NCBI GenBank assembly: GCA_964407835.1
Contig: CAYOXB010000004.1
Coordinates: forward strand, 1 to 60,575
Source: an uncultured Bacteroidales bacterium
GTDB lineage: Bacteria > Bacillota_I > Bacilli_A > ML615J-28 > CAG-698
Reading direction: 5' to 3'
Length of the DNA stretch: 60,575 nt
Position 1 is the stretch's first letter; each line of letters starts with the position of its first letter. The position numbers and the translations under genes were made by a program. The notes under the pieces are model-generated. The model worked only from the letters and a program-made list of their open reading frames with translations, had not been told where the DNA came from and did no database searches. This document shows, piece after piece, positions 31,184 through 50,128 of this stretch.

Positions 31184-31212
31184 TTGCTATTGTTTTAAAA
31201 ATGATGTATAAT
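31184..31212 (+). promoter_or_regulatory. Sigma-70-type promoter of the ncRNA
   Basis: TTGCTA (31184-31189)-17 bp-TATAAT (31207-31212), placing +1 near 31219. Confidence 0.7.
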
Positions 31213-31218
31213 TAAATT

Positions 31219-31387: not shown

Positions 31388-31407
31388 TAAATTAAAAACA
31401 AGAAATT

Positions 31408-31442
31408 AAGACATTCTAGTTATTAACTAGGATGTCTTTTTA
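31408..31442 (+). terminator. Intrinsic terminator of the ncRNA
   Basis: AGACATTCTAGT-tatta-ACTAGGATGTCT followed by a T tract. Confidence 0.8.
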
Positions 31443-31514
31443 TCTAGTGTAAAAGAATAGGTTTAAACTATTTTTATTATTTTTGGTAATATTGTCGCTT
31501 TGGGCACTTTAGAC

Positions 31515-31543
31515 TTGAAAGCGCTTCGCTAATGGTATATAAT
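31515..31543 (+). promoter_or_regulatory. Promoter of the glutamate mutase operon with an overlapping LacI/cre-like site
   Basis: TTGAAA-17 bp-TATAAT; TGAAAGCGCTTC overlaps the -35 and spacer. Confidence 0.6.
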
Positions 31544-31578
31544 AATATATGTAATTTGTAGAAAAATCGGAGGATAAT

Positions 31579-31992
31579 GTGGATACAATAGTTATTGGTG
31601 TAATCGGAGCTGATGTACACGCAGTAGGAAATAAAATAATTGATTATACTCTAACAAGAGAAGGCTTTAATGTTGTTAATGTTGGGGTATTATCTACTCA
31701 AGAAGACTTTATTAATGCTGCAATAGAAACTAACGCAAAAATGATTCTTGTTTCATCTTTATATGGCCATGGGGAGATTGATTGCCGTGGTATGAGAGAA
31801 AAATGTATTGAGGCTGGACTTGATGATATTCTTTTATATGTTGGTGGTAATATTGTTGTTGGAAAACAAGAGTTTTCTGATGTAGAAATGAGATTTAAGA
31901 AAATGGGATTTGATCGTGTTTTCCCTCCAGGAACAACGATTGATTCTGTTATTGAAATAATAAAACAGGATTTAGAAAACCTTAGTGACTAA
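31579..31992 (+). CDS. glmS: Glutamate (methylaspartate) mutase S subunit, B12-binding
   Basis: [11 protein letters not shown] (DxHxxG), [17 protein letters not shown]; GTG start after SD ggagga. Also called mamA/mutS; not the glucosamine synthase. Confidence 0.93.
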
Positions 31993-33382: not shown

Positions 33383-33384
33383 AT

Positions 33385-34842: not shown

Positions 34843-34863
34843 TTAAAGAAAGAGAATTAAAAA

Positions 34864-36111
34864 ATGAAAATTGTAGATGTTATTTTATCAAAATCCTATA
34901 CTGGATTTTACTTTGATGATCAAAAAGCGATTAAAGCTGGAGCTAGCCAAGACGGTTTAGTGTATTTAGGAAAACCAATGACTGAAGGTTTTACTCAAAT
35001 TAGAATGCCTGGTGAGGCTATTTCTATTCAACTTGTTTTAGAAGATGGGTTAGTTGCTAAAGGAGACTGTGCAGCTGTACAATATAGTGGTGCAGGTGGA
35101 AGAGATCCTTTATTTTTAGCTGATGACTTCATTCCATTTATTGAAAAGAATTTAGTTCCGCTTTTAATTGGAGAAGATGTAAAAGATTTTAGAAAGTTAG
35201 CTGAAAAATACGATAATTTAGTTGTTGATGGGAAAAAACTTCATACAGCTATTCGCTATGGTGTTACTCAAGCATTACTTAGTGCAACAAGTTTAGTTAA
35301 AAGAAAAACAATGGCTGAAGTTGTACGAGAAGAATATAATATAAAAGATGACAAGTATGAAGCAGTTGATGTATTTACCCAAAGCGGTGATGATCGTTAT
35401 TTGAATGCTGATAAAATGATTTTAAAAGAAGTAGATGTACTTCCTCATGCTTTAATTAATCATGTGGAAACAAAATTAGGTCAACAAGGTGAAATTTTAG
35501 TTGCCTATGTAGAAAAATTAAATAAAAGAGTTAGAAGCTTAAGAAGTAATCCTAACTATATGCCAATTTTCCATATCGATGTTTATGGAACTGTTGGAAT
35601 AATCTTTGATAATAATGTTAGAAAAATTGTTGATTACTTTAAAATTTTAGAAGAAGCTGCAAAACCATTTAAACTAAGAATTGAAGGTCCAGTTGATGAT
35701 GGTACAAAAGAAGGTACAATGGCTCTTTTAAGAGATATTACTGCACTTTTAGATAAAGAAGGAGTTAATGTTGAAGTTGTTGCTGATGAATGGTGTAACA
35801 ATTTAGAAGACATTAAATACTTTGCAGATAACAGAGCTGGTCATATGCTCCAAATCAAAACTCCTGACTTAGGTGGAGTTAATAATACTATTGAAGCAAT
35901 TATGTACTGTAATGAAAAGAAAATTGGTGCTTATTGCGGTGGCACTTGTAATGAAACAAATATTTCAACTGAAATATCTGTTAACCTGGCTATAGGTGCA
36001 AAAGCTAAGCAAATACTAGGTAAACCAGGTATGGGTGTTGATGAAGCGATTATGCTTGTAAGAAACGAGATGAACCGCGTCTTAGCTATAGCAAACAAAA
36101 GAGGAAAGTAA
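34864..36111 (+). CDS. mal: Methylaspartate ammonia-lyase (beta-methylaspartase)
   Basis: GFYFDDQKAI, GDCAAVQYSGAGGRDPLF, HTAIRYG, LPHALIN, HIDVYG, VADEWCN, QIKTPDLG, GGTCNET. Confidence 0.95.
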   Translation: MKIVDVILSKSYTGFYFDDQKAIKAGASQDGLVYLGKPMTEGFTQIRMPGEAISIQLVLEDGLVAKGDCAAVQYSGAGGRDPLFLADDFIPFIEKNLVPLLIGEDVKDFRKLAEKYDNLVVDGKKLHTAIRYGVTQALLSATSLVKRKTMAEVVREEYNIKDDKYEAVDVFTQSGDDRYLNADKMILKEVDVLPHALINHVETKLGQQGEILVAYVEKLNKRVRSLRSNPNYMPIFHIDVYGTVGIIFDNNVRKIVDYFKILEEAAKPFKLRIEGPVDDGTKEGTMALLRDITALLDKEGVNVEVVADEWCNNLEDIKYFADNRAGHMLQIKTPDLGGVNNTIEAIMYCNEKKIGAYCGGTCNETNISTEISVNLAIGAKAKQILGKPGMGVDEAIMLVRNEMNRVLAIANKRGK

Positions 36112-36112
36112 A

Positions 36113-36370
36113 ATGAAGATTGGCGTTTGTGGCAGCTTAGAATCAAATGATTGCTTAATTACTGTAGAAGAAAGCGATAAACTAGAAATTATAATTGAAA
36201 GTATTGTTTATGATTTCTTTGCTGAACAAATTGAAGATGTAATAAAAAACACCTTAATAGAGCAAGGAATTGCTCAAATTAAGGTTTTTTGTAATGATAA
36301 GGGTGCACTTGATTATACGATTAAATCAAGGCTAGAAGTAGCAATTAAAAGAATGAGGGAGCAAGTATGA
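36113..36370 (+). CDS. citD: Citrate-lyase-type acyl carrier protein (gamma subunit)
   Basis: CGSLESND (prosthetic-group Ser) and DKGALDYTIKSRL. Confidence 0.9.
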   Translation: MKIGVCGSLESNDCLITVEESDKLEIIIESIVYDFFAEQIEDVIKNTLIEQGIAQIKVFCNDKGALDYTIKSRLEVAIKRMREQV

Positions 36371-37209
36371 GAAGATCACTATTATTCATTCCTGCAAATA
36401 ATCCAGGAATGATGCAAAATGCAAAACTTTTCAATGCCGATAGTATTATTTTTGATCTCGAAGATGCAATTAGTATGAGTGAAAAAGATAGTGCTAGAAG
36501 TATTTTAAAAAACTATTTAAACACTTATGACTTTAACTTTGAAGTTATCGTTAGAGTTAATGATCTTGACTCAGTTTATTTCTTAAAAGATTTAAATGAA
36601 ATAGTTCTTCCTAGTCTTGATACTATAATGCTACCTAAGGCTAGAGCAAGTCACTTTAAAAAATTAGATGAAATACTAACAAAACTAGAAACTGAGAAAA
36701 AATTAAAAAAGAAAATTAAAGTTATTCCGATTGTTGAGCTTGCTATATCAGTTTTAGAAATAGAAGAAATAGCAAAAGCAAAACGAGTTGATGGTATTTT
36801 ACTTGGTGCTGAGGACCTATCTAGTGATATGGAGTTTGAAAGAACTCTAAAAGGTGATGAGATATTTTACCCAAGAACTAGACTTGCTTATGTTGCTAGA
36901 GCATATGGTATAGATGCAATTGACACTCCATTTACTAATGTTAGAGATAATGATGGTTTAGTTAAAGATGCAACATATGCAAAATCTCTTGGTTTACAGG
37001 CAAAAGCTGCAATTCATCCAAATCAAGTTAGATTTATTAATGAAGTATTTTCACCATCTAAAAAACAAATTGAATTTGCTTTAAAAGTTGAACTTGCTTC
37101 TAAAAATAATAAAGGTGCATTTAGTCTTGATGGGCAAATGATCGATAAACCGATAATTGAAAGAAATAAAAAGATTCTTGAAAAAGCAAGAAAGTTTGAT
37201 TTGCTATGA
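36367..37209 (+). CDS. citE: Citrate/citramalate-lyase-type beta subunit (acyl-CoA lyase)
   Basis: RRSLLFIPANNP, FDLEDA, VRVN, LGAEDL, AIDTP, AIHPNQ; ATGA overlap with citD. Confidence 0.9.
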   Translation: MRRSLLFIPANNPGMMQNAKLFNADSIIFDLEDAISMSEKDSARSILKNYLNTYDFNFEVIVRVNDLDSVYFLKDLNEIVLPSLDTIMLPKARASHFKKLDEILTKLETEKKLKKKIKVIPIVELAISVLEIEEIAKAKRVDGILLGAEDLSSDMEFERTLKGDEIFYPRTRLAYVARAYGIDAIDTPFTNVRDNDGLVKDATYAKSLGLQAKAAIHPNQVRFINEVFSPSKKQIEFALKVELASKNNKGAFSLDGQMIDKPIIERNKKILEKARKFDLL

Positions 37210-38699
37210 TGAAATTACCAAAAGGTTTTAAAGGATTTACAACAAGCGAAGCTTATAAGCAAATAGAATATAAAAAAGTTGCTACTATTGAAGCTAGCAA
37301 TAAAGACAATAAGGTTTTAAAAAGTATTAGTGAAGCATTTGATAAGCTAAAAATTGTAGATGGAATGACTTTGTCTTTCCACCATCACTTAAGAAATGGT
37401 GATTTTGTCTTAAACTATTGTTTAGCGGAAATAAAAAAAAGAAATTTAAAAAACATTACTTTAGCACCTAGTTCAATCTTTCCTGTACACGAAGCTTTAA
37501 GTGAACTCATAATTAATAAAAATGTTACAACGATTTATACTAACTATTTAAATGGTAGTGTTGCAAATACAATTAATGATGGTTTTCTAGAAGGTTTACT
37601 TATTATGGATACTCACGGGGGAAGAAGTGTAGCAATCGAGGCTGGAGAAATTGTAATTGATGTAGCTTTTATTGCAACTCCTACAGCTGATAAACTTGGC
37701 AATGGCCACGGCAGAAGTGGTAAAAGCGCATGTGGGTCTTTAGGATATGCTATTCCTGATATGTTATACGCGAAGAGTAAAGTAGTAGTAACTGATAATT
37801 TAGTTGATAGTGTAGAAAACCCTGAAATAAAAGATAAATATATTGATTATGTTGTAGAGATTGAAGCAATTGGAGACCAACAAAGAATAGTTAGCGGTAC
37901 TACGAAAATTACAACTGATCCAATTGGTTTAAGGATTGCAGAAGATACAGCAAAACTAATTAATGAACTTGGCTTAATAAAAAATGGGTTTTCAATGCAA
38001 ACTGGTGCAGGGGGGACGTCCCTTGCAGTTAGCGATTTTATTAAAAAAATAATGAAAGAGCAAAATGTAAAGGCTAAATTTGCAAGTGGTGGTATAACTG
38101 GCTATTTTGTAGATATGCTTGAAGAACATTTAGTTGAAGATTTATATGATGTTCAATGTTTTGATTTAGCTGCTGTTAAAAGTTTAGAAAAAAACAAAAA
38201 TCATCATGCAATTAGTGCTTTTGATTATGCTAATCCCTATCATGATCCAGTTGTAAATAAACTTGATTTAGTTATTTTGGGAGCTACTGAAATTGATTTA
38301 AACTTCAATGTCAATGTAACTACAGGATCAAATGGAATTATTATGGGTGGAAGTGGTGGTCATGCAGATACAGCACATGGTGCTGGAGTAAGTATAATTG
38401 TTAGTCCTTTAATTAAGACAAGAATTCCAATCATTAAAGATAGAGTTACTACAATAACTACACCTGGTGAAGATATTGATGTATTTGTAACTGAATATGG
38501 AATTGCAATTAATCCAAAAAGAAAAGATTTACTAAAAAAGATAAAAAATACAAAACTTAAAATAAAAACTATTGAAGAACTCTATAATGAAGCTCATGAT
38601 ATAACATCAATTCCTAAAAAACTAATAAAAACCGATAAAGTAATTGGTTTAGTTAGGTATAGGGATATGAGCATTATCGATTGTATTTATAAAAAGTAG
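37206..38699 (+). CDS. citF: Citrate/citramalate-lyase-type alpha subunit (CoA/ACP transferase)
   Basis: SFHHHLRNGD, THGGR, CGSLGY, QTGAGG, DVQCFD, GGSGGHADTA. Confidence 0.92.
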   Translation: MMKLPKGFKGFTTSEAYKQIEYKKVATIEASNKDNKVLKSISEAFDKLKIVDGMTLSFHHHLRNGDFVLNYCLAEIKKRNLKNITLAPSSIFPVHEALSELIINKNVTTIYTNYLNGSVANTINDGFLEGLLIMDTHGGRSVAIEAGEIVIDVAFIATPTADKLGNGHGRSGKSACGSLGYAIPDMLYAKSKVVVTDNLVDSVENPEIKDKYIDYVVEIEAIGDQQRIVSGTTKITTDPIGLRIAEDTAKLINELGLIKNGFSMQTGAGGTSLAVSDFIKKIMKEQNVKAKFASGGITGYFVDMLEEHLVEDLYDVQCFDLAAVKSLEKNKNHHAISAFDYANPYHDPVVNKLDLVILGATEIDLNFNVNVTTGSNGIIMGGSGGHADTAHGAGVSIIVSPLIKTRIPIIKDRVTTITTPGEDIDVFVTEYGIAINPKRKDLLKKIKNTKLKIKTIEELYNEAHDITSIPKKLIKTDKVIGLVRYRDMSIIDCIYKK

Positions 38700-38706
38700 G
38701 TAGAAT

Positions 38707-39675
38707 ATGGAATTTAAACTAGCTTTACTAGATTCTGAAAAAGAATTAATAAAAGAATTTTTAAATAAATTTTCACTTAGCTATGATCAAGATATTGATT
38801 ATAGCTTATATGTCGTTATTGACGAGAAAATTATTGGAACAATTTCTGCTAGTTTAAATATAATAAAAGCTTTTGCGGTTGATTTAGATTATCGTGGAAG
38901 TCTTGCAAGTACATTAATAAGTAGAGCAATTAATGAACTTTATAGAAGGGGTTATACGTTTTACCAAGTATATACAACACCTAATAATAAAGCTATGTTT
39001 GAAGCGATGAATTTCTATGAAATTATATCTTCAGAAAATGTAAGTTTACTAGAATCTAAAAATAGAGATATTATGGCTGAGTTAATTAGACTTAAAGATA
39101 AATATAAAGTAAATAGTAGTGATGTTGCTGCAATTGTAATGAATTGTAATCCTTTCACAAACGGTCATTTATATTTAATAACTGAAGCTAGTAAAAAACA
39201 TGAACAAGTTATTGTTTTTTTACTAGAAGAAGAAAAATCGATGTTTAGTTTTGCTTCTAGGTATGAGATGGTTTTAAAAGGTGTAGCTAGTCTAGATAAT
39301 GTTGTAGTAATACCTTCTAGTAATTATTTAATCTCAAGCCTTACTTTTCCAACTTACTTTCTAAAACAAGAAGACGAGAAAACATTTGAAGAAGCTAAAC
39401 TTGATGCTTTAATTTTTGAAAAATACTTTATTCCGATATTCAATATTAAAAAAAGATATCTTGGCAGTGAAGAAGATATCGTTACTAGTAAATATAATAA
39501 AGTTTTAAAAGAATATTTTGGTGATTTTATTGAAATAATTCCAAGAATTAAAAATAATGATAAATATATAAGTGCATCAATTGTAAGAAAGTATTTAGAA
39601 AACAAGGAATTTGAAAAGATTAAAGAAATAGTTCCTCTTACAACATATAGTTTTTTGAAGAGTAAATATGAATAA
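38707..39675 (+). CDS. citC: [Citrate lyase] ligase (acetate:SH-lyase ligase)
   Basis: N-terminal GNAT-like region; IVMNCNPFTNGHLYL, YLISSLTFPTYFLK, ISASIVR. Confidence 0.9.
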   Translation: MEFKLALLDSEKELIKEFLNKFSLSYDQDIDYSLYVVIDEKIIGTISASLNIIKAFAVDLDYRGSLASTLISRAINELYRRGYTFYQVYTTPNNKAMFEAMNFYEIISSENVSLLESKNRDIMAELIRLKDKYKVNSSDVAAIVMNCNPFTNGHLYLITEASKKHEQVIVFLLEEEKSMFSFASRYEMVLKGVASLDNVVVIPSSNYLISSLTFPTYFLKQEDEKTFEEAKLDALIFEKYFIPIFNIKKRYLGSEEDIVTSKYNKVLKEYFGDFIEIIPRIKNNDKYISASIVRKYLENKEFEKIKEIVPLTTYSFLKSKYE

Positions 39676-40924
39676 AGAAATCTTAATAGCAAGAGAACAA
39701 AGAAGTAAGCATATTCTTGAAGAATCAAGAAGTAATAAAGTTATTGTTATTAAAGCAAATATTGCTGGGGAAAATAAAAACTTATATTATAGTTCATTAA
39801 TTATTAAAACATTTCTAAAAGAAATAAAGAAGAGAATAGAATATAATGAAGTTGAACATTATTCAAGTTTAGATGGTAATTATTATTTAGTTACACTTTC
39901 TGGAAATTTAAAAGAAATTAAAAGAGTTTTAATAGACTTAGAAGACAATCATTTACTTGGAAGACTAGTTGACCTTGATTTATATTATGAAGGTAAGCAA
40001 ATTTCACGTAGAGACCTTGGAAATAGTTTTAGAAAATGTTTAATATGTAGTGATGATGCTATAATTTGTATGAAAACAAATAAACATAGTTTAGCTGAGG
40101 TCTTAAACAAAAGTGAACTCTTAGTTCATAACTATTTAAGTGAAATTATAACTACAAATTTAATTGAAGCTATTACCCTCGAAGCATCATTAGATCCTAA
40201 ATTTGGTCTTGTTACCAAGACCTCAAAAGGGTCACACTCGGATATGGACTTTGATTTACTTATGAAATCAAGAGACATAATAGTTCCTGATTTAGGTAGG
40301 ATGTTCTTTTTTGGAATAAATAATAACTTAGATGAAGCGTTCAAACTTAGCCGCAAACTTGGTATTTCTACAGAAGAAAGAATGTTTATGGTAACAAATG
40401 GTGTTAATACATATAAGGGTTTAATATTTCTACTTGGTATTGTTCTTACAACAATGGGTTATTTATTTAAAAATAAAAAACTAAGTTTATATGAAAGCAT
40501 AAAAGAACTTGGTAGGAATTTAGTAGCTGAACTAGATAGTGATTTAAATACATTTGGTGGTTATGCTTATAAAGAATATGGCTTTTTAGGTATAAGGGGC
40601 GAAGTTGCTAGTGGCCTAGTGAGCTTAAGAGATGTTACTAGAGATCTAAATAGCTTTAGTGATGAAGAATTAACTCTAGCTTTGATTAAGTTAATTGGGG
40701 CAAGTGAAGATACTGTATTACTAAGGCGCTCAGGTAGTTTGGGAAAATATGAGTTTTATAAAAACTTAGTAGTTAACATTAAAGAATATAATCTAGAAAA
40801 AATAGAAGAAGTAACTAGAATTTGTGTTGAAAACAATATTAGTTTTGGCGGAAGTGCAGATTTACTAGCAACTGCTATATTTATTAAACTAATGGAAAAG
40901 GATTTGGTTATAAAATATGGATAA
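39668..40924 (+). CDS. citXG: Fused holo-ACP synthase CitX / triphosphoribosyl-dephospho-CoA synthase CitG
   Basis: N-half: LIAREQR...LEDNHLLGRLVDLD...RKCLIC (CitX). C-half: PKFGLV...GSHSDMD, NTYKGLIF, GIRGE, SFGGSADLL (CitG). Confidence 0.88.
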   Translation: MNKEILIAREQRSKHILEESRSNKVIVIKANIAGENKNLYYSSLIIKTFLKEIKKRIEYNEVEHYSSLDGNYYLVTLSGNLKEIKRVLIDLEDNHLLGRLVDLDLYYEGKQISRRDLGNSFRKCLICSDDAIICMKTNKHSLAEVLNKSELLVHNYLSEIITTNLIEAITLEASLDPKFGLVTKTSKGSHSDMDFDLLMKSRDIIVPDLGRMFFFGINNNLDEAFKLSRKLGISTEERMFMVTNGVNTYKGLIFLLGIVLTTMGYLFKNKKLSLYESIKELGRNLVAELDSDLNTFGGYAYKEYGFLGIRGEVASGLVSLRDVTRDLNSFSDEELTLALIKLIGASEDTVLLRRSGSLGKYEFYKNLVVNIKEYNLEKIEEVTRICVENNISFGGSADLLATAIFIKLMEKDLVIKYG

Positions 40925-41693
40925 AAGACCAATTGGTGTATTTGATTCGGGAATTGGTGGAGTTAATGTTTTAAAAAGTTTAATAGAAGAGTTTCCTCAT
41001 GAAGACTTTATATATGTTGCAGATACTCTAAATGTACCTTATGGAACTAAATCAGCAAATGAAATTAAAAACTTAGTTGATAGAATTACTAAGTATTTAA
41101 TGAGTAATAATGCAAAGGCAATTGTTATTGCTTGTAATACAGCAACTACGCAAGCTGAACATTTATTTAATTTAGATAATTTAGTAGTTCTTGGTGTTAT
41201 TAAGCCAACAGCAGAAGATGCTTTAAAAAATTCAAAAAACATTTGTGTTCTAGCAACTAATGCAACAATTAAAGCAGGTGTATATCAAAATATTTTCCTT
41301 AAAGAAGGTAAAAATGTATTTCCTATTATGGGAAGTGAACTTGTCGATGCAATTGAAGCTGGCGAGATTGACAATGAATTATCCCATACATTAGTATATA
41401 ATCATTTAAAAGATTTAGTGAATGAAAAAATAGATACTATTGTACTGGGGTGTACTCATTTTGCTTTATATGAAAGAGAAGTAAAAAGTGTTTTAAAAGA
41501 TGCAAGAGTTGTTAATTCTGGCAAACCTACCAGTAAAGAATTAAGAAAAGTTTTAAGCAGAAAGAATTTACTTAATAAGAGTAAAGAAAAAGGAAGAGTT
41601 GACTTAAAGACAACTCTAGATAAAGAAAAGTTTGAAAAACAAATAGCAATATTTGATTTAAAATATAATAGTGTAGAAAAAATTAATATTTAA
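40917..41693 (+). CDS. murI: Glutamate racemase (catalytic motifs intact)
   Basis: IGVFDSGIGG, PYG, IACNTAT (Cys73), VLGCTHF; 8-bp overlap with citXG. Confidence 0.93.
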   Translation: MDKRPIGVFDSGIGGVNVLKSLIEEFPHEDFIYVADTLNVPYGTKSANEIKNLVDRITKYLMSNNAKAIVIACNTATTQAEHLFNLDNLVVLGVIKPTAEDALKNSKNICVLATNATIKAGVYQNIFLKEGKNVFPIMGSELVDAIEAGEIDNELSHTLVYNHLKDLVNEKIDTIVLGCTHFALYEREVKSVLKDARVVNSGKPTSKELRKVLSRKNLLNKSKEKGRVDLKTTLDKEKFEKQIAIFDLKYNSVEKINI

Positions 41694-41718
41694 AAAGAGC
41701 AGAAGTCTGCTCTTTTTT
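41692..41718. terminator. Bidirectional intrinsic terminator
   Basis: AAAAAGAGCAG-aagt-CTGCTCTTTTT between murI and the convergent hydratase genes. Confidence 0.85.
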
Positions 41719-42268
41719 ACTTTCTATTTGTATATTTACTTATACCTTCGCTTAATAAGTCATTTCCATGACTATCATAGGTTACAAAAGCTGTGAAATC
41801 TTCAACTTCAAGTTTATGGATTGCCTCAGCTCCAAGTTCAGGATAAGCAACAACTTCAGCTTTTTTGATTGATTTACTTATTAATGCTGCAGCACCGCCA
41901 ATAGCTGATAAATAAAGACCACCGTATTTTTTAAGTAATTCTTTAAATTCATCATCTCTTGGTCCTTTACCGATTGAAACTTTTATACCTTCTTTCATCA
42001 GGGCTTCTGCATATGGGTCCATTCGATAACTAGATGTTGGTCCAGCTGAGCCTATTGCTTGATGAGGTTTTGCGGGTGAAGGCCCTACATAGTAAATAAT
42101 AGTGTTTTGTGTTTCTATAGGTAGTTTTTCACCACTTGCTATTGTTTCAACCATTTTTTTATGGGCCGCATCTCTAGCGGTGTAAATTGTTCCTGTTATT
42201 GAAACTGTATCTCCTGCTTTTAGTTTCTTTATTTGTTCATCTGTAATTGGTGTTGTAAGTTTTATCAT
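41717..42268 (-). CDS. Class I fumarate hydratase / tartrate dehydratase family, beta subunit (candidate mesaconase)
   Basis: GTIYTARDAAH, IYYVGPSP, GPTSSYRM, IGKG, GGAAAL, EAIHKLEVEDF; ATG 42268 preferred (SD aggtga). Confidence 0.88.
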   Translation of the reverse strand: MIKLTTPITDEQIKKLKAGDTVSITGTIYTARDAAHKKMVETIASGEKLPIETQNTIIYYVGPSPAKPHQAIGSAGPTSSYRMDPYAEALMKEGIKVSIGKGPRDDEFKELLKKYGGLYLSAIGGAAALISKSIKKAEVVAYPELGAEAIHKLEVEDFTAFVTYDSHGNDLLSEGISKYTNRK

Positions 42269-42277
42269 AGTTATCAC

Positions 42278-43123
42278 CTAAATTGTAATTTCTTTATGTC
42301 TAGCAGCATGACACTGGATGTTTATTGCAACAGGAAGACTTGCAATATGGCATGGATAGGAGTTAACTTTAACTGCTAGAGCAGTTGTAGTTCCACCAAA
42401 CCCCATTGGTCCTACACCTAGATCATTTATTTCTTTTAGTAATTCTCTTTCAAGCTCGCGGTCTAACGGATTAGCTGCTTCATCATTAATTGGTCTAAAG
42501 ATAGCCTCTTTCGCAATTATAGCTGCTTTTTCTAGATTTCCGCCTATACCAATTCCTACTATTAATGGTGGACATGGTTTACCACCAGCACTAAAAATAG
42601 TATCAAGGACTAGTTTTTTAACTCCTTCTTTGCCATCTGCAGGAATTAGCATCTTCACAAGTGACATGTTTTCACTACCACCACCCTTAGGTGCAACTGA
42701 AATTCTTAGTTTATCACCTTCAGTTATTGATGTGTGAATAATAGCCGGGGTATTATCTTTTGTATTTATTCTTTCAAGCGGATGATTTACAACTGATTTA
42801 CGTAAATATCCTTCTGAGTAAGCTTCTCTAACTCCTTGATTAATTGCATCATAAATATTACCTTCGAAAATAATTTGATTACCAATTTCGATAAAAATAA
42901 CAACAATTCCAGTATCTTGACACATTGGTACGAATTCTCTTCTAGCAATTAAATCATTTTCTTCAATTTGTTTTAAGACTGTTTTACCTATTGAAGACTT
43001 TTCATCCTTAATGGCTTCTCTAATTTTTGTTAGAACATCTTCATCTAAATTATAGTTAGCATCTAATAATAGATCTTTAACTGCTTTTGTTACTTCATTT
43101 AAATTTAACTTTCGCATATTCAT
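42278..43123 (-). CDS. Class I fumarate hydratase / tartrate dehydratase family, alpha (Fe-S) subunit (candidate mesaconase)
   Basis: PMCQDTG, LRKSVV, NTKDNTP, KGGGSEN, KPCPP, GPMGFGG, CHIASLPVAINIQCHAARH. Confidence 0.9.
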   Translation of the reverse strand: MNMRKLNLNEVTKAVKDLLLDANYNLDEDVLTKIREAIKDEKSSIGKTVLKQIEENDLIARREFVPMCQDTGIVVIFIEIGNQIIFEGNIYDAINQGVREAYSEGYLRKSVVNHPLERINTKDNTPAIIHTSITEGDKLRISVAPKGGGSENMSLVKMLIPADGKEGVKKLVLDTIFSAGGKPCPPLIVGIGIGGNLEKAAIIAKEAIFRPINDEAANPLDRELERELLKEINDLGVGPMGFGGTTTALAVKVNSYPCHIASLPVAINIQCHAARHKEITI

Positions 43124-43418
43124 CTCCCAAATAAATTCTAATTACATTATATCACTTTTTGGTAGTTTATGTAATAACAAACTTCTTTATCTTCTTTTAC
43201 TACTTTTTAAGCCTAAATTTAAGTTTATAGGGCTTTTAAATTGGGATGTAAAATTAGTCATGCTTACTATTAAAAACGCTTCAAGGGCAATTTTAAGCCT
43301 TATTATTAGATTATAGAGCTAGTAGTTAAGAATAATAAACAATAAAACATTTTCTTAAAAAAATATGATAGCAGAAATAATAATCTTATGGTAAAATATA
43401 ATAAGTGAGGTAGTAATA

Positions 43419-44219
43419 ATGATTAAAAAAGCGATTGGGATTTTAGATAGTGGCTTTGGAGGTACTTTCATTTTGGAAGAACTTGCAAAGTACTATAAAA
43501 ATGAAAGATTTATTTATTTAAATGATTTAAAGCATTATCCATTTTATAATCGTCCTGAAGGTGATGCTCTTAATATTATTAAAAGTCATATTGATTTACT
43601 TCTGAAAGAAGATATTAAATTATTAATTGTTTTAAGTGATATTATTGTAGATATTGCTTTTGATTATTTACAAGAATTTAATATTCAAGTAATTAATATT
43701 GTAGATTTGCTTATTAATTATGTAAATAAAAACTATGAAAACAAAAATATTTGTCTTTTTGGGAAAACTGAAGTAATTGAAGCTAATCTATATCAAAAGA
43801 ATTTTAAGTATAATAGGCTTTATAATATTCCAAGTGAAGATTTAGAGTTATTTATCTTACAAAAGCAAACTAAAACATCACAATCTTTTAAAGCTGTTCA
43901 AGTAGCATTTAATCAAGTAAGAAAGAGATCAATTGATTGTATTGTTGCTTCTAGTCCTTATTTAATTGAGCTTAATACTGAATTAAAAGAACATTTGGAG
44001 TTTAATGAAATAACAAATTTAAAAGATATCATTATAGAAGATATTAACGAAAGAAGATATTTCCTTAATCCTAAGGGTAGGGGAAGTATTAATATTTTAA
44101 GTAATTTAGAAAAAAAAGAGTTTAGTAAACTCATTAAGTTTAAAAAACTTAAATATGATTATATAGATATTGAATATGACCAAAGGAAAAAAAGAGCAAA
44201 ACTTAATAAAGGTTTATAG
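43419..44219 (+). CDS. Glutamate racemase-like protein lacking both catalytic cysteines
   Basis: IGILDSGFGG and YP retained; ACNT replaced by LSDI and GCTH by SSPY; ORF is full length. Confidence 0.8.
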   Translation: MIKKAIGILDSGFGGTFILEELAKYYKNERFIYLNDLKHYPFYNRPEGDALNIIKSHIDLLLKEDIKLLIVLSDIIVDIAFDYLQEFNIQVINIVDLLINYVNKNYENKNICLFGKTEVIEANLYQKNFKYNRLYNIPSEDLELFILQKQTKTSQSFKAVQVAFNQVRKRSIDCIVASSPYLIELNTELKEHLEFNEITNLKDIIIEDINERRYFLNPKGRGSINILSNLEKKEFSKLIKFKKLKYDYIDIEYDQRKKRAKLNKGL

Positions 44220-44228
44220 ATTAAATAA

Positions 44229-44260
44229 AAAACCCATCTTAGTGAATAGTGATGGGTTTT
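44229..44260. terminator. Bidirectional intrinsic terminator
   Basis: AAAACCCATC...GATGGGTTTT between convergent genes. Confidence 0.75.
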
Positions 44261-44262
44261 AA

Positions 44263-44862
44263 TTATTTATAAATGATGTAATTCCAATCAGGATTAGCAT
44301 AATCTCTAATATTGGAATTTTCAAAAAATGGAAAGTGCTCTTCAGAAATTGGTTCGATTTCGCGCCATTCGCTCCATGGGTTACCACTATGGGTAAGTGG
44401 GCTATTCACAAACCAGTTACTAGTGGTATAGGCACTATTTGCGATGAAATAACGACCATTTGCAGTTACTACAGAATTAACTCTATAGTTTTTGTTTGCT
44501 TGCCACTCAAGTTCAATAGAAACAAATGCCCAAAGTGGGGGATTGTTTGAATCTGGTAGGCCGTGATAAGCTGGATTATATTCTGGGGATGTAGAAATAT
44601 ATAAATCATCTTCGAATTTAAATATTTGTCCTTCAGGAACAACTTGATTAATATTTTCTTCTTCAACCCATATATCCAAATCATAGTCGTCATAGATTGG
44701 AGGTGTAGTTTCTTCTTGATAATTCCAATCACCAATTGTAATTGATTTAGGCGGTAGAGATGAATTATTTAAGCTATCCGTATCCCAAAAAGCATAAGTT
44801 ACTCCAGATAAGCAAATTATGAATGTTATAATTGTAAATAGATATAATGCAAATCTTTTCAT
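44263..44862 (-). CDS. Secreted protein with SipW-cognate-like signal peptide and CBM5/12-like segment
   Basis: ...SGVTYAFWD...ITIGDW at the N-terminus; EWQANKNYRVNSVVTANGRYFIA resembles the W..Y..G..V...G..Y chitin-binding module. Confidence 0.55.
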   Translation of the reverse strand: MKRFALYLFTIITFIICLSGVTYAFWDTDSLNNSSLPPKSITIGDWNYQEETTPPIYDDYDLDIWVEEENINQVVPEGQIFKFEDDLYISTSPEYNPAYHGLPDSNNPPLWAFVSIELEWQANKNYRVNSVVTANGRYFIANSAYTTSNWFVNSPLTHSGNPWSEWREIEPISEEHFPFFENSNIRDYANPDWNYIIYK

Positions 44863-44936
44863 AACTTGCCTCCTTTTTTAAAACTATTTACTATTATACA
44901 ATAATTCATCCAAAAATGCTAGTTATATAATTTTAA

Positions 44937-44958
44937 AAAGCCAAGATAACTTGGCTTT
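44937..44958 (-). terminator. Intrinsic terminator of the lipoprotein gene
   Basis: AAAGCCAAG-ataa-CTTGGCTTT, with a T tract on the minus strand. Confidence 0.7.
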
Positions 44959-44963
44959 AAGTT

Positions 44964-45368
44964 TTACTTCTTTGCAGCATTTCCGTTAAATGCATTGACC
45001 ATCTCAGTTGGGTTTAAACCAATTGGGATTAAAAGACAATTGCCTCTAACTAATTCGCTTTTTTGTAGGTCTTTTACTAATCCTTTTAATGTTGAAGATT
45101 CTTCTAATTGTTTATTTAATTCTTTCGTAGATTGGAATTCTAAAACAACAGCAACGTTAAGTCCTTTTGTGAATACATGTGGTGTAACTTTGACATCATC
45201 TTCTTCAAATTCAGCAAGTAAAGGTTTAACAAGATCGTTTACTTTTTCGCTGTATTTATAATCAGCTTTTTCAAAATCTGATTTTACAGAATTAAAACTA
45301 CTACAACCAGCAAGAAGAACTAAACTAAATACTAAAGCTATAACAGCTAAAAATCTAAATTTCTTCAT
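44964..45368 (-). CDS. Small lipoprotein of unknown function
   Basis: MKKFRFLAVIALVFSLVLLAGC lipobox; SD ggagg before ATG 45368. Confidence 0.75.
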   Translation of the reverse strand: MKKFRFLAVIALVFSLVLLAGCSSFNSVKSDFEKADYKYSEKVNDLVKPLLAEFEEDDVKVTPHVFTKGLNVAVVLEFQSTKELNKQLEESSTLKGLVKDLQKSELVRGNCLLIPIGLNPTEMVNAFNGNAAKK

Positions 45369-45505
45369 TTTTATTCCTCCTTTATACAATTCATTATATA
45401 CCTTAATAGCAAGTATTGCAATGGTGTTTTACTATTAAAATTGATTCTTACTTGTAATTATTGTTTTATATAGTATAATAATATTAATATAATGAGGAAT
45501 GAATA

Positions 45506-46945
45506 ATGGAAGATAAATTGCTTTTAAAACAACAAAAAAAGCAAAGGTTAATATTAGAAAATAAAAACCTTGGTTTAAGTATATTATGGTTGGCGTTGCC
45601 AATCTTTTTAAGTAATTTTATGAAGTCATTTAATGATTTAATTGATCTTTATTTTGTTACGAATTTAACAGATCCTGAGTTTGTTGTTTCCGCAACAACT
45701 GCTCTAAATCTTCCAAACCCAGTTATTTCGATAACTTTATCTATAGCTGGGGGATTTATGACAGCAGGAGCAGCAATGATTGCTCAGTATCTAGGTGCAA
45801 AGCAAAAGGCTAGTGCAAATAAAATAGCAGGACAGTTATTGATTTTGTGTTTGGGTGCTGGAGCTATTATGGGTGGCGTTCTTTATATATTTACCCCAGC
45901 GATTATGAAAGCAATGGGAGCAGAAGGCTTATCACTTGAATATATGATTGCCTATGTTAGAATAAGGTCTTTAGAGATGGTTCCTTTATTTGCTTTCTAT
46001 GCTTTTCAAGCTACTAGAACTGCAAGTGGTGATACGACTACTCCATTTTTACTTAATATTGTAATGATTATTGTAAATATAGTTTTCACATATTATTTTA
46101 TGAAATATCTTAATATGGGAATAAGAGGGGCTGCTTGGGGAACATTTCTAGGTAATCTAATTATAATGCCTGTGTTTTTAGTTTTAATGTTTAAGAAAAA
46201 TGATAGATTTGTAACTATTACAGCTAAGGATATTCAAGTAGACACGAAAGAAATTAATAGAATATTTAAACTTTCCTGGCCTGTTGCCTTTTCTCAAGCT
46301 CTAACATCTTTAGGATTTTTAATTTTAAACACAATGATTCTTTCATATGGGGAGGCGACTGTAAATGCCTTTGGGGTTGGAAATAGAATAAATTCGATGG
46401 TTTTAATGCCAGCAATGGGTATTGGAAGTATTGTCGCCACCTTTGTAGCTCAAAATATTGGGGCTAATAATATCCCAAGAGCAAGAAAATCAGTTAGAGC
46501 AGCGATGATTATGTCCATTGCAACAGCAATTATTGGAGCTGCTATATTATTTCCAATTAGAAAACAATTAATCGGGATATTTTTAGATGAACAACCTGAA
46601 GCACTTGCTTTAAGTATTGAATATTTATTCTTCCTCCTAGCAAGTCTACCGCTTATGAGTATTTTCCAAGTTTATATGGGAACATACCAAGGAAGTGGTG
46701 AGACGAAATATAGCTTAGTTCTTTCAATGCTTAGACTTTGGGCGATGAGAATTCCACTTGTCTTACTTTTCAAAAATGTATTTGACCTACCAGCATCAAG
46801 CCTTTGGTATGCTATGACAATATCTAATTTTGGGGCAGCGTTTGTTGGGATAATTCTGTATAAGAAATGTGATTTTGAACCTAAGATTATTCGAAGTGGT
46901 CAAAGTTTAGAGGATAGCAATGAAGAAGTTGTTAATCCAGCCTAA
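45506..46945 (+). CDS. MATE family efflux transporter
   Basis: LALP...DLYFV, IAQYLGA, GDTTTP, GIRGAAWGT, AFGVGNRI, QNIGA; about 12 TM segments. Confidence 0.92.
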   Translation: MEDKLLLKQQKKQRLILENKNLGLSILWLALPIFLSNFMKSFNDLIDLYFVTNLTDPEFVVSATTALNLPNPVISITLSIAGGFMTAGAAMIAQYLGAKQKASANKIAGQLLILCLGAGAIMGGVLYIFTPAIMKAMGAEGLSLEYMIAYVRIRSLEMVPLFAFYAFQATRTASGDTTTPFLLNIVMIIVNIVFTYYFMKYLNMGIRGAAWGTFLGNLIIMPVFLVLMFKKNDRFVTITAKDIQVDTKEINRIFKLSWPVAFSQALTSLGFLILNTMILSYGEATVNAFGVGNRINSMVLMPAMGIGSIVATFVAQNIGANNIPRARKSVRAAMIMSIATAIIGAAILFPIRKQLIGIFLDEQPEALALSIEYLFFLLASLPLMSIFQVYMGTYQGSGETKYSLVLSMLRLWAMRIPLVLLFKNVFDLPASSLWYAMTISNFGAAFVGIILYKKCDFEPKIIRSGQSLEDSNEEVVNPA

Positions 46946-47846
46946 ATATAGCATAAGTGGTGTTGTCTCAAGAAGGAAGTATGAAGAATATAAAGAGATC
47001 AAGAAGAAGGACTTAGAGAAATACCCTTGGTTTAAATCTATCTTAGTCTTTGCCTTTCCACTTTCCGGTGAAGCTGTTAGAAACATTCGTTATTTAGGTG
47101 CTAGATATACATATGGTGAGGATTATCATAGAGTTGTTAGTAGTGAACTTGAAAAGATAGCAAAAGAGCTAAACTTAAACAAATATAAAGTTTTTACTGA
47201 TATTAGTATTTTAGATGAAAAAATATGTGCTTATTTAGCTGGCCTTGGTTGGTATGGTAAAAACAATTTAATAATTACCAATGAATTTGGTTCAAATATT
47301 GCAATTGGTGAGATTATTACTGATGAGGAGTTTGAAGAAAATACTATTTTAATGGATTCTTTATGTGGGGATTGTAGGTTATGTATTGATGCTTGTCCTA
47401 CAAAAGCCCTAACTAATCCTGGTTTTATTAAAGAAAGATGTCTATCTTATCTAACTCAGTATATATCTAGTGATTATGAACTTTATAATAAGGTTTTAAA
47501 ATATGCAGTTGGTTGTGATATTTGCCAAATAGCTTGCCCATATAATAAGGTTAGCTATTCATATGATAATAGATTTAGTTTCAATGATAAGTCTATTATT
47601 ACTTTAGATATTTTAAGTAAGCTAGATAATAATTCTTTTTTAGAATATTATGACAATAAATCATTTACTTGGATTGGTTATTTAAAGATGCTTAGAAATA
47701 TTCTTACATTAGAAGTAAATAATAAAAACATTACATCAATTGAACTAGAAAAATATCAAAAAAAACATAGGGATGTTAAGTGGTTTTATGACCATATTGA
47801 GTATTTGAAAACAAGAGTGAAGGAAAATAGTTATGGGAACAATTAA
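46920..47846 (+). CDS. queG: Epoxyqueuosine reductase (cobalamin and Fe-S dependent)
   Basis: ARYTYGEDYH, AGLGWYGKN, CGDCRLCIDACPT, RCLSY, GCDICQIACPYN; lies upstream of trmL. Confidence 0.85.
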   Translation: MKKLLIQPKYSISGVVSRRKYEEYKEIKKKDLEKYPWFKSILVFAFPLSGEAVRNIRYLGARYTYGEDYHRVVSSELEKIAKELNLNKYKVFTDISILDEKICAYLAGLGWYGKNNLIITNEFGSNIAIGEIITDEEFEENTILMDSLCGDCRLCIDACPTKALTNPGFIKERCLSYLTQYISSDYELYNKVLKYAVGCDICQIACPYNKVSYSYDNRFSFNDKSIITLDILSKLDNNSFLEYYDNKSFTWIGYLKMLRNILTLEVNNKNITSIELEKYQKKHRDVKWFYDHIEYLKTRVKENSYGNN

Positions 47847-48360
47847 TCTAGTTTTATATGCACCTGAAATTCCGCATAATACAGGTAATATTATGAGAAC
47901 TTGTCTTGCAACTAATTGTATTCTTCATTTAATTGAACCACTTGGCTTTAGTTTAGATGAAAAAGCAATTAAAAGAAGTGGTGCTAATTATGATTTTGTT
48001 AGTGATTTTAAGTATTTTAGATATAAGGACTTAAGTGAGTTTTTTGAGAAAAATAATGATGGTGAGTTTTACTACCTAACAAGATATGGTGAACATGACT
48101 TGTTTTCAGTAAACACAGTAGATGAGAATAAGAATTATTACTTTATTTTAGGTAGTGAATCAAGTGGCCTACCCTATGATTTATTAAAAGAAAACATCGA
48201 TAGGACAATTAGACTTCCAATGACTGATAAAGTAAGATCACTTAATTTAAGTAATTGTGCAGCAATTATAATTTATGAAGCGCTTCGTCAACAAAGTTTT
48301 AAAGGCTTAGAGAAGCACGAACCGAGTATTTATAAAGGTTCAGATTTTTTAAAAAAGTAA
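47833..48360 (+). CDS. trmL: tRNA (cytidine/uridine-2'-O)-methyltransferase, SPOUT family
   Basis: VLYAPEIPHNTGNIMRTC, LIEPLGF, GSESSGLP, RSLNLSN. Confidence 0.93.
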   Translation: MGTINLVLYAPEIPHNTGNIMRTCLATNCILHLIEPLGFSLDEKAIKRSGANYDFVSDFKYFRYKDLSEFFEKNNDGEFYYLTRYGEHDLFSVNTVDENKNYYFILGSESSGLPYDLLKENIDRTIRLPMTDKVRSLNLSNCAAIIIYEALRQQSFKGLEKHEPSIYKGSDFLKK

Positions 48361-48376
48361 CACTTGATTATTAAAG

Positions 48377-48403
48377 AAACACTTGATTTTTTCAAGTGTT
48401 TTT
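48377..48403 (+). terminator. Intrinsic terminator after trmL
   Basis: AAACACTTGA-ttttt-TCAAGTGTTT followed by T. Confidence 0.75.
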
Positions 48404-48496
48404 AAATTTAAAAAAATATTTTTCTTATAATACTTGATTTTTTTGAAATATGGTATAATAGAGGTGATATAAATATATGAAAGAGAGGATAAGATT

Positions 48497-50128
48497 TTGA
48501 AAAAGTTCTTTTTGTTTGTATCGCTATTTGTAATAGCATTTGTACTCGTTGGCTGTACGGGTGGTAGTTCTCTAAAAATTAATTCTGAGTTAATTAACGC
48601 AAATGTACAAGAAACTGAGGAGTTGTTGGCTCCACGAAACAAAATTATTGTTTCTGACTTAAAAGATTATACGATAATAAACCAATCATATCTCAATCAA
48701 GGCATACTTGTTGTACGAGATGATGAAAATAAAACTGGAGTTTGGTCAGTTATGACTGGAAAACTATTATTCCCACTTGAAGAACAAGCAAGTTTCTACA
48801 TGTTTTATGTTAGTTATATAGGGCTTTATATTGAAAGAGAATCATTTGATGGAGCTTTGACGCTTTATGATATAAATGGAAATGTTTCACTTAATAAAAA
48901 TGACTATTATACTTATAATATTACTGGAAGTAGAGAAGCAATTTATGATGATAATTATAATTTTTTGAGATATGATTATTTTGAAGAAGTTAGTTATCTA
49001 ACTCAAGATAAATTCGACAATGGAATTACTGAATCAACTGTAAAAAAATTCAAGATTAATGTGGAAACAAAAACTAAAGAAGTTGTGGAGGCAGTTGAGG
49101 TTGAGGATGTATTTAATGATCCAACAAATCAATATCCACTAGATGCGTTTAATTTAAAGGGATACTACTTTAAGATTATTGAAGACCATTTCTATGTGTA
49201 TGATAAAAACGATAAGTTTGTATCTAATTTCTATTTTAATGAATCATCAACCCTATCATCATTTACTGCAGATGGACATTTAATCTACCAAAGAGAATAT
49301 TTACTACCTTCCACAAGTGAAGATTATGATTTTGCTGCTGGTGGTGATAAATACAAACTAATGTCTTATTCTATAAATATTCTTAAAGGAACTGAAAAAG
49401 CCTTAAAACTTGATTATATAGTTCACTATAATAACCCTTTTAAAGACGCTAAAGGAAATTACAAGTATACATATGCTGTAATTGAAAAGATTGAAAATAA
49501 AATGTTATCTGGAAAAGAGTTAATTGTAATTTTAGATAATAAAGGTAATATCGTTGCTACACCTGGAGTATTTTATATTCCTGATTTAGTTAAATTAAAT
49601 GATTCGTACTATTATGATTCAAATAATTCTTATATTGTAAGTAGTAACTTAGATCCAGTTGTCAAACTTGGAAGTTCTCATGCATTGCTTAGAGAATTAG
49701 AATTATTTGTTGTTTGGAAAAATGGCTCTTATGGAGCAATTAACTATGAAGGTAAAGTTGTAATTCCATTTGAGTACTCAAGTATTTCAAATGAATCATA
49801 TGATGGAAGAGTATTTGCTGTTCATAATGATGGTACTCGTTATACATTTGATAAAGATGGAGTTAGAGGGACTATTTATAGTGGTGCACAACCACTTAGT
49901 CTAGGATTATTGTTCCACTCAGAATATGATGATGATGACGGTGTATATAAAGCACGTATTAGAGATTATAACAATAGTGTAAAACTCGGATTTGATTTTG
50001 ATTCACCAACATCAATTATCTTCTATACTATTTCTAATATTTATGGACAATATAAGTATTTCAAATATGTATATGATGCAAAAGATTATGTTGTTGTAAT
50101 TGATACTACATATGTAAAATCTGAATAG
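48497..50128 (+). CDS. Beta-rich lipoprotein with WG-repeat-like segments
   Basis: TTG start, MKK...VLVGC lipobox; KNGSYGAINYEGKVVIPFEY resembles a WG beta repeat. Confidence 0.7.
   Translation: MKKFFLFVSLFVIAFVLVGCTGGSSLKINSELINANVQETEELLAPRNKIIVSDLKDYTIINQSYLNQGILVVRDDENKTGVWSVMTGKLLFPLEEQASFYMFYVSYIGLYIERESFDGALTLYDINGNVSLNKNDYYTYNITGSREAIYDDNYNFLRYDYFEEVSYLTQDKFDNGITESTVKKFKINVETKTKEVVEAVEVEDVFNDPTNQYPLDAFNLKGYYFKIIEDHFYVYDKNDKFVSNFYFNESSTLSSFTADGHLIYQREYLLPSTSEDYDFAAGGDKYKLMSYSINILKGTEKALKLDYIVHYNNPFKDAKGNYKYTYAVIEKIENKMLSGKELIVILDNKGNIVATPGVFYIPDLVKLNDSYYYDSNNSYIVSSNLDPVVKLGSSHALLRELELFVVWKNGSYGAINYEGKVVIPFEYSSISNESYDGRVFAVHNDGTRYTFDKDGVRGTIYSGAQPLSLGLLFHSEYDDDDGVYKARIRDYNNSVKLGFDFDSPTSIIFYTISNIYGQYKYFKYVYDAKDYVVVIDTTYVKSE

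Follow-up and report, generated by a model that had tools for sequence, protein, structure and literature searches.

Why would a bacterial genome that encodes an intact glutamate racemase (MurI) also maintain a second gene for a protein of the same fold in which the catalytic residues of that enzyme have been replaced? The question is raised by the open reading frame (ORF) 43419..44219 on the plus strand of contig CAYOXB010000004.1 (assembly GCA_964407835.1), a stretch of 60,575 nucleotides of uncultured bacterial DNA that is referred to below as the window. An initial annotation of this ORF described it as a catalytically dead paralog of MurI located next to a glutamate fermentation cluster, and suggested that the protein is a ligand sensor, an inhibitory partner of MurI or a moonlighting factor. 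We use the name murIL for this gene, which starts with ATG and encodes a racemase-dead MurI paralog of 266 amino acids, as indicated by the ORF itself, BLASTP, and structure prediction combined with Foldseek. The reading that we favor, with a probability of roughly 60%, is that murIL is a lineage-restricted, non-racemizing, binding-only pseudoenzyme with the MurI fold that is confined to uncultured Acholeplasmatales-like bacteria. Such a protein would bind a macromolecular partner through a new conserved patch in its C-terminal domain, and our single best guess for this partner would be a translationally coupled CobB-type deacylase, with the active MurI and DNA gyrase as close seconds.

The fold of MurI is retained and its active site is lost

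The murIL protein is 23% identical to the active MurI of the window (40917..41693; E = 1e-17 in BLASTP), and the two sequences align without a gap across the first ~120 residues, which is more than the 75 residues of gap-free colinearity claimed at the outset. An AlphaFold2 (AF2) model of murIL built on 29 orthologs has a predicted local distance difference test score (pLDDT) of 91.1 and a predicted template modelling score (pTM) of 0.88, and the best 48 matches to this model found by Foldseek in the Protein Data Bank (PDB) are all glutamate racemases, with template modelling (TM) scores of 0.69-0.83 and 13-22% sequence identity. Furthermore, a profile search with murIL over the PDB sequences retrieved MurI only, and the MurI fold, with one additional short helix at the C-terminus, accounts for the entire chain. 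Judged by the model, murIL is a protein with the two-domain Asp/Glu racemase fold. The curated sequence models give a different answer: a Pfam scan of murIL produced no match at E<=1, PF01177 included, and the TIGR00067 score is 61.1 bits, under the cut-off of 146.65, whereas the canonical MurI of the window passes both models (72 bits for PF01177 and 188 bits for TIGR00067, against the same cut-off). Thus, murIL falls outside the curated glutamate racemase models, and it has neither the two catalytic cysteines nor the auxiliary residues of these enzymes.

The two acid/base catalysts of MurI are Cys-74 and Cys-185 in the Bacillus subtilis enzyme (PMC8142540). In the murIL protein of the window, the ACNTAT sequence of MurI is changed to LSDIIV, with Cys73 replaced by Ser, Asn by Asp and Thr by Ile, and the GCTH motif is changed to SSPY at residues 178-181, so that the second catalytic Cys is Ser179, whereas DSGFGG is kept at residues 10-15. 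These motif assignments, including the Cys to Ser replacement at both positions, agree with the initial annotation; the retention of DSGxGG holds for the window protein but not for its family, in which the consensus is LDxGxEG. The active site is damaged well beyond the two cysteines: the Asn, three Thr, the Glu and the His are likewise replaced.

How consistent is this loss across the family? We aligned 54 sequences of the family clade (51 fully dead proteins and the transitional P0053, P0054 and P0057) with 13 canonical MurI. The first catalytic position, 73, which is Cys in 13/13 canonical sequences, is occupied in the family clade by S (37 sequences), N (11), C (3), G (2) or A (1), and the second, 179, again Cys in all 13, by S (31), D (6), T (5), E (4) and others, with Cys in a single sequence. 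Asn74, found in 12 of the 13 canonical proteins, is D in 40/54, and Thr75, with the same canonical frequency of 12/13, is variable. The two threonines of the ATxxT motif, each present in 13/13 canonical MurI, are mostly K (29) or R (16) at position 114, and I (33) or V (16) at position 117. Three further positions that are invariant in canonical MurI (13/13 each) are Glu147, where the family clade shows no preference, Thr180, which is P in 33/54, and His181, which is Y in 21 sequences, N in 12 and F in 8. The only survivors of the old pocket are Asp10 (54/54) and Tyr42 (48/54). The mean entropy of the 14 ancestral functional sites, 1.83 bits, is close to that over all columns, 2.03 bits; therefore, these sites appear to have been freed from constraint rather than retuned. 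A salt bridge between Asp74 and Lys/Arg114 that would fill the old pocket was considered as well and rejected, the two positions being without clean covariation across the extended family. As far as the sequence allows one to judge, murIL is a protein that cannot racemize glutamate; it is devoid of every catalytic hallmark of MurI and should not carry the glutamate racemase annotation.

The family is taxonomically narrow and under purifying selection

A word-index search yielded 30 murIL orthologs with 37-54% identity, all from Acholeplasmatales and 'Bacilli' metagenome-assembled genomes (MAGs), which are annotated as hypothetical proteins or, when labelled by the Joint Genome Institute (JGI), as glutamate racemase. 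An exhaustive profile search among 1.84 billion representatives identified 30 murIL clusters at E<=1e-30, beyond which the scores grade into those of ordinary MurI, and the family is accordingly sized at about 30 clusters at 50% identity, with source MAGs from Acholeplasmatales, Mollicutes or "Bacilli". A scan of species-representative genomes gave nine murIL loci, in MAGs titled Acholeplasmataceae, Acholeplasmatales, Tenericutes, Mollicutes, Bacilli or Bacillales, with two labelled Bacteroidales. No named match to the family came from outside the Acholeplasmatales, Mollicutes and Bacilli MAGs. Two loci, L015 (CAYQUB010000045.1) and L016 (CAZYFI010000043.1), were deposited as 'uncultured Bacteroidales' and show the gene order of the Acholeplasmatales/Bacilli MAG loci, with fumBA and murIL in both; L015 further has sir2, matE, queG, spoU and thyA downstream, and the contig of L016 stops just past murIL. 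The Bacteroidales label of these two loci is probably a binning error. At the GC-rich end of the family, a word-index search with P0050 found P0058 as the sole match, and a metagenome scan with the high-GC subset returned two loci only, both of the AT-rich type.

The murIL ORF is intact in 20/20 loci checked. For the least saturated pair of loci, L002 and L015, the ratio of nonsynonymous to synonymous substitution rates (dN/dS, Nei-Gojobori method, NG86) is 0.10 at dS 0.59, compared to 0.11 for sir2, 0.10 for queG, 0.085 for thyA, 0.055 for spoU and 0.05 for fumA in the same pair; over the three pairs for which neighbor genes could be compared too, the murIL values are 0.10-0.19, and they reach up to ~0.22 at near-saturated dS. 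In distant genome pairs, the identity of murIL (37-60%) keeps in step with that of murI (47-56%), citXG and queG. Thus, murIL is under purifying selection that is about as strong as that acting on the neighboring sir2 and queG, and the view of murIL as a retained, selected dead paralog, with orthologs that carry the same kind of substitutions, is borne out.

A new set of conserved residues in the C-terminal domain

So what is it that selection preserves in a protein that has lost its active site? We defined family-specific positions by a conservation of 88% or more in the dead family combined with a different residue, or no conservation, in canonical MurI. There are 16 such positions, all of which except N35 are located within residues 107-191, that is, in the C-terminal domain: N35, E107, K109, N110, N123, K127, Y131, L134, Y135, K152, T153, F157, E188, E191 and neighbors, which form the family motifs YEQKN, NLYQKNFKYNRLYN, KTSxSF and TExxE. 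In the AF2 model, some of these residues precede or begin strands 110-115 and 133-138; others fall in the loop that follows helix 117-122, at the beginning of helix 154-163 and in the final turns of helix 180-192. In a parallel alpha/beta domain, the active site is formed where the strands reach their C-terminal ends. Judged by this topology, a conserved patch is expected on the opposite side, and most of the family-specific residues should face away from the old active site, at the far edge of their domain. We conclude with confidence that the function of murIL depends on these newly conserved residues of the C-terminal domain and is independent of the glutamate fermentation (glm) cluster that the gene adjoins in the window.

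Gene neighborhoods of murIL

The 30 loci that we collected were annotated by tblastn with the window's own proteins. In the window itself, the methylaspartate-pathway cluster glmS-glmL-glmE-mal-citD-citE-citF-citC-citXG (31579..40924, plus strand; Pfam, with citD at 36113..36370) is followed by murI (40917..41693, plus strand; PF01177, TIGR00067), the last gene of the glm-mal-cit operon, which overlaps citXG by 8 bp and encodes a canonical glutamate racemase with all catalytic residues present, the probable parent paralog of murIL. Beyond murI, on the minus strand, is the gene pair for a class I Fe-S fumarate hydratase of the fumarase/mesaconase type (41717..43123; beta subunit 41717..42277, alpha subunit 42278..43123; PF05681 and PF05683, with NF004885 and NF005310 above cut-off), from which murIL is transcribed divergently, as had been noted initially. 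Farther downstream, on the plus strand, lies a block encoding a MatE transporter, a QueG-like epoxyqueuosine reductase and a SpoU-family methyltransferase (45506..48360; Pfam and synteny across L001-L029).

The surroundings of murIL fall into five types. Type A, found in the window, L001, L004 and L025, has the order glm-mal-cit-citXG-murI, fumBA on the minus strand and murIL. Type B (L002, L010, L016 and L018-L020) consists of degV, a gene for a 744-amino-acid protein, citXG, fumBA (minus strand) and murIL; glm, mal, citEF and murI are all lacking from the 10 kb around murIL. Type C (L006, L021) has psuG (minus strand), citXG-murI, fumBA (minus strand) and murIL-sir2-queG-spoU; in type D (L012), psuG (minus strand) is followed by murI-murIL-sir2-spoU, with only 9 nt between murI and murIL; and in type E (L008), the order is psuG (minus strand), murIL, an 87-amino-acid ORF, spoU and thyA. 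The arrangement in L015, fumBA (minus strand), murIL and sir2-matE-queG-spoU, is type-B-like, the contig ending inside fumB. Among the more divergent members, the P0050 gene (L024, 60% GC) is flanked by fumA (minus strand) and by sir2 with an 8-bp overlap, that of P0040 (L027, 44% GC) is abutted by sir2, and that of P0058 (L028) belongs to the array murIL-sir2-spoU.

In the loci annotated, murIL is always upstream of, and on the same strand as, the sirtuin/queG/SpoU block. The sir2 gene, which encodes a CobB-type NAD-dependent protein deacylase (NF001752 above cut-off), is directly downstream of murIL in 11 loci (L002, L004, L006, L012, L015, L020, L021, L022, L024, L027 and L028), with a start/stop overlap in L002, L006, L021, L022 and L024, and a gap of 0-18 nt in L012, L020, L027 and L028; in L004, a 192-amino-acid ORF (L004:10782-11360) is present between the two genes. 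The loci with a downstream sir2 range in GC content from 25 to 60% and in identity to the window murIL down to 28%.

Several smaller ORFs occur in the same region. The 192-amino-acid ORF of L004 and the 87-amino-acid ORF of L008 (L008:10989-11252), the latter ahead of the SpoU methylase gene, both follow murIL on its own strand, and neither has a family match. In the window, the usual place of the sirtuin is filled by two minus-strand ORFs without a Pfam match, 44263-44862 and 44964-45389, one with an N-terminal hydrophobic segment and the other with a lipoprotein-like LAGC motif. The possibility that murIL and sir2 form an anti-phage SIR2 defence system was also considered and rejected: there is no meaningful PADLOC match for either gene, and sir2 is the housekeeping NF001752 deacylase.

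Candidate partners and alternative explanations

Which macromolecule could a binding-only murIL engage? We would place the CobB-type deacylase first, ahead of a heteromer with MurI, modulation of gyrase and an association with the divergent Fe-S hydro-lyase, in this order; CobB takes the first place because its gene is a phylogenetically broad, same-strand neighbor. Several observations weigh against this reading. All the partners are candidates only. The sir2 gene is not adjacent to murIL in five lineages, namely the window, L001, L008, L010 and L019, and there is no sir2 anywhere in the 60-kb window; furthermore, gene order in small related genomes may persist without functional coupling. 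That the patch lies on the far edge was deduced from the order of secondary structure elements, not from coordinates. Finally, within the old pocket, Asp10 and Tyr42 are near-invariant and position 114 is mostly Lys or Arg, so that a small ligand might still be accommodated in a remodelled pocket.

The alternative that survives best, albeit as an unlikely one, is that murIL is the regulatory half of a heteromer, pairing with the active MurI and tuning the interconversion of D- and L-Glu. MurI is dimeric in most species, and dead paralogs frequently regulate their active relatives. In accord with this possibility, murIL is derived from murI, directly follows it in L012, is found less than 2 kb from it in types A and C, and fully keeps the fold. 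However, there is no murI within 10 kb in six type-B loci or in L008, and the closeness of the two genes elsewhere may be a relic of duplication.

Duplication is indeed how the family appears to have started. The tandem pair of L012, together with a C-terminal ending of the W..KY.Y type that is clearest in the murI of L004, L006 and L012, suggests a tandem duplication. In a simple neighbor-joining (NJ) tree of these divergent sequences, computed from Kimura distances over 254 columns, 97 of 100 bootstraps recover the dead family as monophyletic, and all 100 do so for its union with P0057, P0053 and P0054, which branch as a ladder. P0057 keeps every catalytic residue, yet already shows YQKN..., KT..SF and LKTE..E, whereas the first Cys is the only catalytic residue kept in P0053 and P0054; these three proteins may represent steps in a gradual decay of MurI, or separate decays, in related lineages. 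The genes for P0057 (L023:327-1052) and P0053 (L030:1678-2451) are located upstream of an inorganic pyrophosphatase gene, a context different from that of murIL. Because P0057 combines the family motifs with a complete active site, the motifs seem, on this comparison of sequences, to be older than the loss of catalysis, which would fit the sub-functionalization of a second, non-catalytic role. The chain of events would then lead from tandem duplication of murI to an active second isozyme bearing the family motifs, and from there to the loss of catalysis.

A non-catalytic role of this kind has a precedent in the modulation of gyrase, the sole such activity documented for MurI. DNA gyrase is inhibited by the MurI of E. 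coli, B. subtilis (YrpC), M. tuberculosis and M. smegmatis; the M. tuberculosis protein binds GyrA, and racemization and gyrase inhibition are uncoupled (PMC10886550, PMC1635304). The initial annotation, too, described this moonlighting as independent of catalysis. A bold generalization, which we consider rather unlikely, is that murIL is a natural separation-of-function MurI whose non-catalytic role, be it gyrase modulation or partnership with the CobB sirtuin, is exercised through the C-terminal patch; if true, the murIL patch would point to the interaction surface of moonlighting MurI proteins. The narrower proposition that murIL is a dedicated modulator of gyrase, to which the catalysis-independent activity of MurI was passed on, appears still more doubtful. 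The presence of YQKN..., KT..SF and TE..E already in the catalytically complete P0057 speaks in its favor, given that the second function could predate the loss of catalysis, and so does the persistence of the half-dead P0053 and P0054 in another context. Against it, there is no known gyrase-binding determinant of MurI with which the murIL sequence could be matched (PMC10886550), and no linkage to gyrA or gyrB in any locus annotated.

Could murIL instead be a new enzyme, for example a C4/C5 dicarboxylate isomerase, or else an accessory factor, that serves the divergent class I Fe-S hydro-lyase? The Asp/Glu racemase superfamily does contain non-racemase enzymes, the divergent arrangement of fumAB and murIL is kept in 14 ortholog loci, including L024 with its 60% GC, and the invariant polar residues D10, E107, N110, N123, Q126, K152, T153, E188 and E191 could form a site. 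Nevertheless, we regard this possibility as improbable: the two acid/base positions of all known superfamily members are variable in the murIL family (S/N/G/A and S/D/T/E, respectively), L008 and L012 have murIL without a nearby fumAB, and the genes are divergent, not co-transcribed.

Even less can be said for a sensor of glutamate, mesaconate or citramalate, or a regulator, that is dedicated to the methylaspartate (glm) cluster. To be sure, murIL borders the complete glm-mal-cit-murI cluster with fumAB in the window, L001, L004 and L025, the cluster comes without a classical transcription factor, and the glutamate pocket retains Asp10 and Tyr42. However, among the distinct ortholog contexts examined, these four are the only ones with glm, methylaspartase or citEF genes within 10 kb, and at least nine loci, of types B-E, have murIL without glmS/L/E, methylaspartase or citE/F in that range. 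The location of murIL beside the glutamate fermentation cluster is one variant among several of a variable upstream metabolic island, and the idea that murIL functionally belongs to the cluster, with orthologs linked to glm genes, is not supported. The remaining glutamate-contacting positions are unconstrained in the family, and a Glu sensor operating through the ancestral site is disfavored because, save for Asp10 and Tyr42, the old pocket is unconserved; of the initial proposal of a pseudoenzyme acting as a ligand sensor, the retained dead paralog (dN/dS ~0.1) stands. No regulatory machinery came to light either. No DNA-binding domain was detected in murIL (Pfam, NCBIfam), nor did the ORFs from 30154 to 43123 or the six scanned farther downstream (44263..50125) show one, which upholds the initial remark that the cluster includes no transcription factor. 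A search for a shared operator or regulon motif in 11 fumA/murIL intergenic regions gave only the extended -10 elements of the two promoters and no conserved palindrome. Rfam scans for a riboswitch or leader in window positions 41600-45600 and six ortholog loci gave sub-threshold hits only, two of which coincide with terminator hairpins in the window. Furthermore, glm clusters are known from Clostridium and E. coli O157 (PMC4682846), and would seem to function without murIL, because all named hits of the family are in Acholeplasmatales, Mollicutes or Bacilli MAGs. Thus, the role of murIL as a dedicated regulator of the glm cluster is not supported, and the glutamate fermentation cluster of the window is left without its sole candidate 'regulator'.

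Lastly, the possibility that murIL is a decaying duplicate, a pseudogene in progress that has lost all catalytic residues along with recognition by Pfam, can be dismissed, being refuted by the conserved orthologs in ~30 clusters, the 20 intact ORFs, the dN/dS values (~0.10 in the least saturated pair and at most ~0.22), the 16 new near-invariant positions, the confident AF2 fold, and the conserved promoter element and Shine-Dalgarno sequence.

Expression signals and other features of the window

Direct reading of the sequence reveals the Shine-Dalgarno sequence GAGGT at 43407..43411 (plus strand), 7 nt ahead of the ATG. The intergenic alignment further points to a predicted promoter of murIL's own (43368..43397, plus strand), with a weak -35 element ~17 nt upstream of the extended -10 element TGGTAAAAT (43389-43397), a prediction only; a consensus promoter scan did not single it out. 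In the alignment of 11 loci, the TGnTAnAAT block, accompanied in most by an upstream TTGAAG, is the best-kept part of the fumA/murIL intergenic region. On the other side, folding shows a terminator-like hairpin (44229..44260) that is common to murIL and the convergent gene 44263..44862 (minus strand), has a minimum free energy of -13.3 kcal/mol (z = -3.58, with 0/200 shuffles equally stable) and is directly followed by the U-run UUUUAAUU. This hairpin emerged only on folding, a simple consensus terminator scan having found nothing at murIL. The ORF is thus real and full length, with the ribosome-binding site and the terminator that the initial annotation had ascribed to it. The encoded protein ends in a lysine/arginine-rich helix, DQRKKRAKLNKGL (residues 251-266; 44169-44216), a basic tail that is confined to the window's own subclade, in which the closest relatives read RKxRxKKxK. 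A further short segment, 41663-41736, between the convergent murI and fumB, gave sub-threshold hits to a small RNA model on both strands and is most likely a bidirectional terminator hairpin.

The upstream part of the window (31579-43123) accommodates a complete methylaspartate pathway of glutamate fermentation, with glmS/L/E, methylaspartase, the citramalate-lyase-type citD/E/F/C/XG and a class I fumarase that is likely a mesaconase, in what is, judged by the relatives of the window, an Acholeplasmatales-like genome. Given that this lineage is expected to lack peptidoglycan, the translational coupling of murI to citXG through the 8-bp overlap suggests that the MurI of the window feeds scavenged D-glutamate into fermentation.

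In the type-B loci, the place of the glm and cit lyase genes is taken by the gene for the ~744-amino-acid protein (L010:4837-7071; also L002, L016, L018, L019 and L020), which is always immediately upstream of citXG, shows 65-76% identity between the MAGs compared with a dN/dS of 0.06, and has no match in Pfam or NCBIfam. CitXG is a prosthetic-group synthase/transferase, and the ~744-amino-acid protein is a candidate for a new enzyme that needs the 2'-(5''-phosphoribosyl)-3'-dephospho-CoA prosthetic group. The window also contains two very large plus-strand ORFs, 9727-17136 (2469 amino acids) and 25483-30102 (1539 amino acids).

Significance and comparison with known systems

MurI is an antibiotic target, and the retention of its fold under selection, with the whole active site discarded, implies that this fold has a selectable non-enzymatic use. 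The structural basis of the catalysis-independent gyrase activity of MurI is not known (PMC10886550), and the murIL family offers a small number of residues as candidates for the interface. There is also a practical warning for annotation: the 'glutamate racemase' label that JGI attaches to some members is almost certainly wrong, and could falsely suggest that Mollicutes-like MAGs metabolize D-glutamate or peptidoglycan. Our literature searches found no paper on a pseudoenzyme of the Asp/Glu racemase superfamily, the murIL family, MurI in Acholeplasma or a connection between MurI and sirtuins, and we classify the murIL family as a pseudoenzyme branch of MurI that is new as far as these searches show.

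How does this branch compare with what is already known? The closest known system is MurI/RacE (EC 5.1.1.3), represented by RacE1 and RacE2 of B. anthracis (2dwu, 2gzm) and RacE of B. subtilis (1zuw), with which murIL shares the two-domain fold (TM up to 0.83), the length, the colinear alignment and the residues Asp10, Tyr33, Asp36 and Tyr42, in keeping with its descent from the murI of its own lineage. The differences are equally clear, in that both catalytic Cys, along with the Asn, Thr, Thr, Glu, Thr and His, are replaced and unconstrained, the scores are below the PF01177 and TIGR00067 thresholds, and 16 new positions are conserved. The gyrase-inhibiting MurI, namely B. subtilis YrpC and the mycobacterial enzymes, resemble murIL in being, like it, a second MurI copy per genome and in putting the fold to a catalysis-free use (PMC10886550, PMC1635304); YrpC and mycobacterial MurI are, however, active racemases, which murIL, by its sequence, cannot be. 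With pseudoenzyme paralogs in general, murIL has in common the kept fold, the lost catalysis, the purifying selection and the newly conserved positions.

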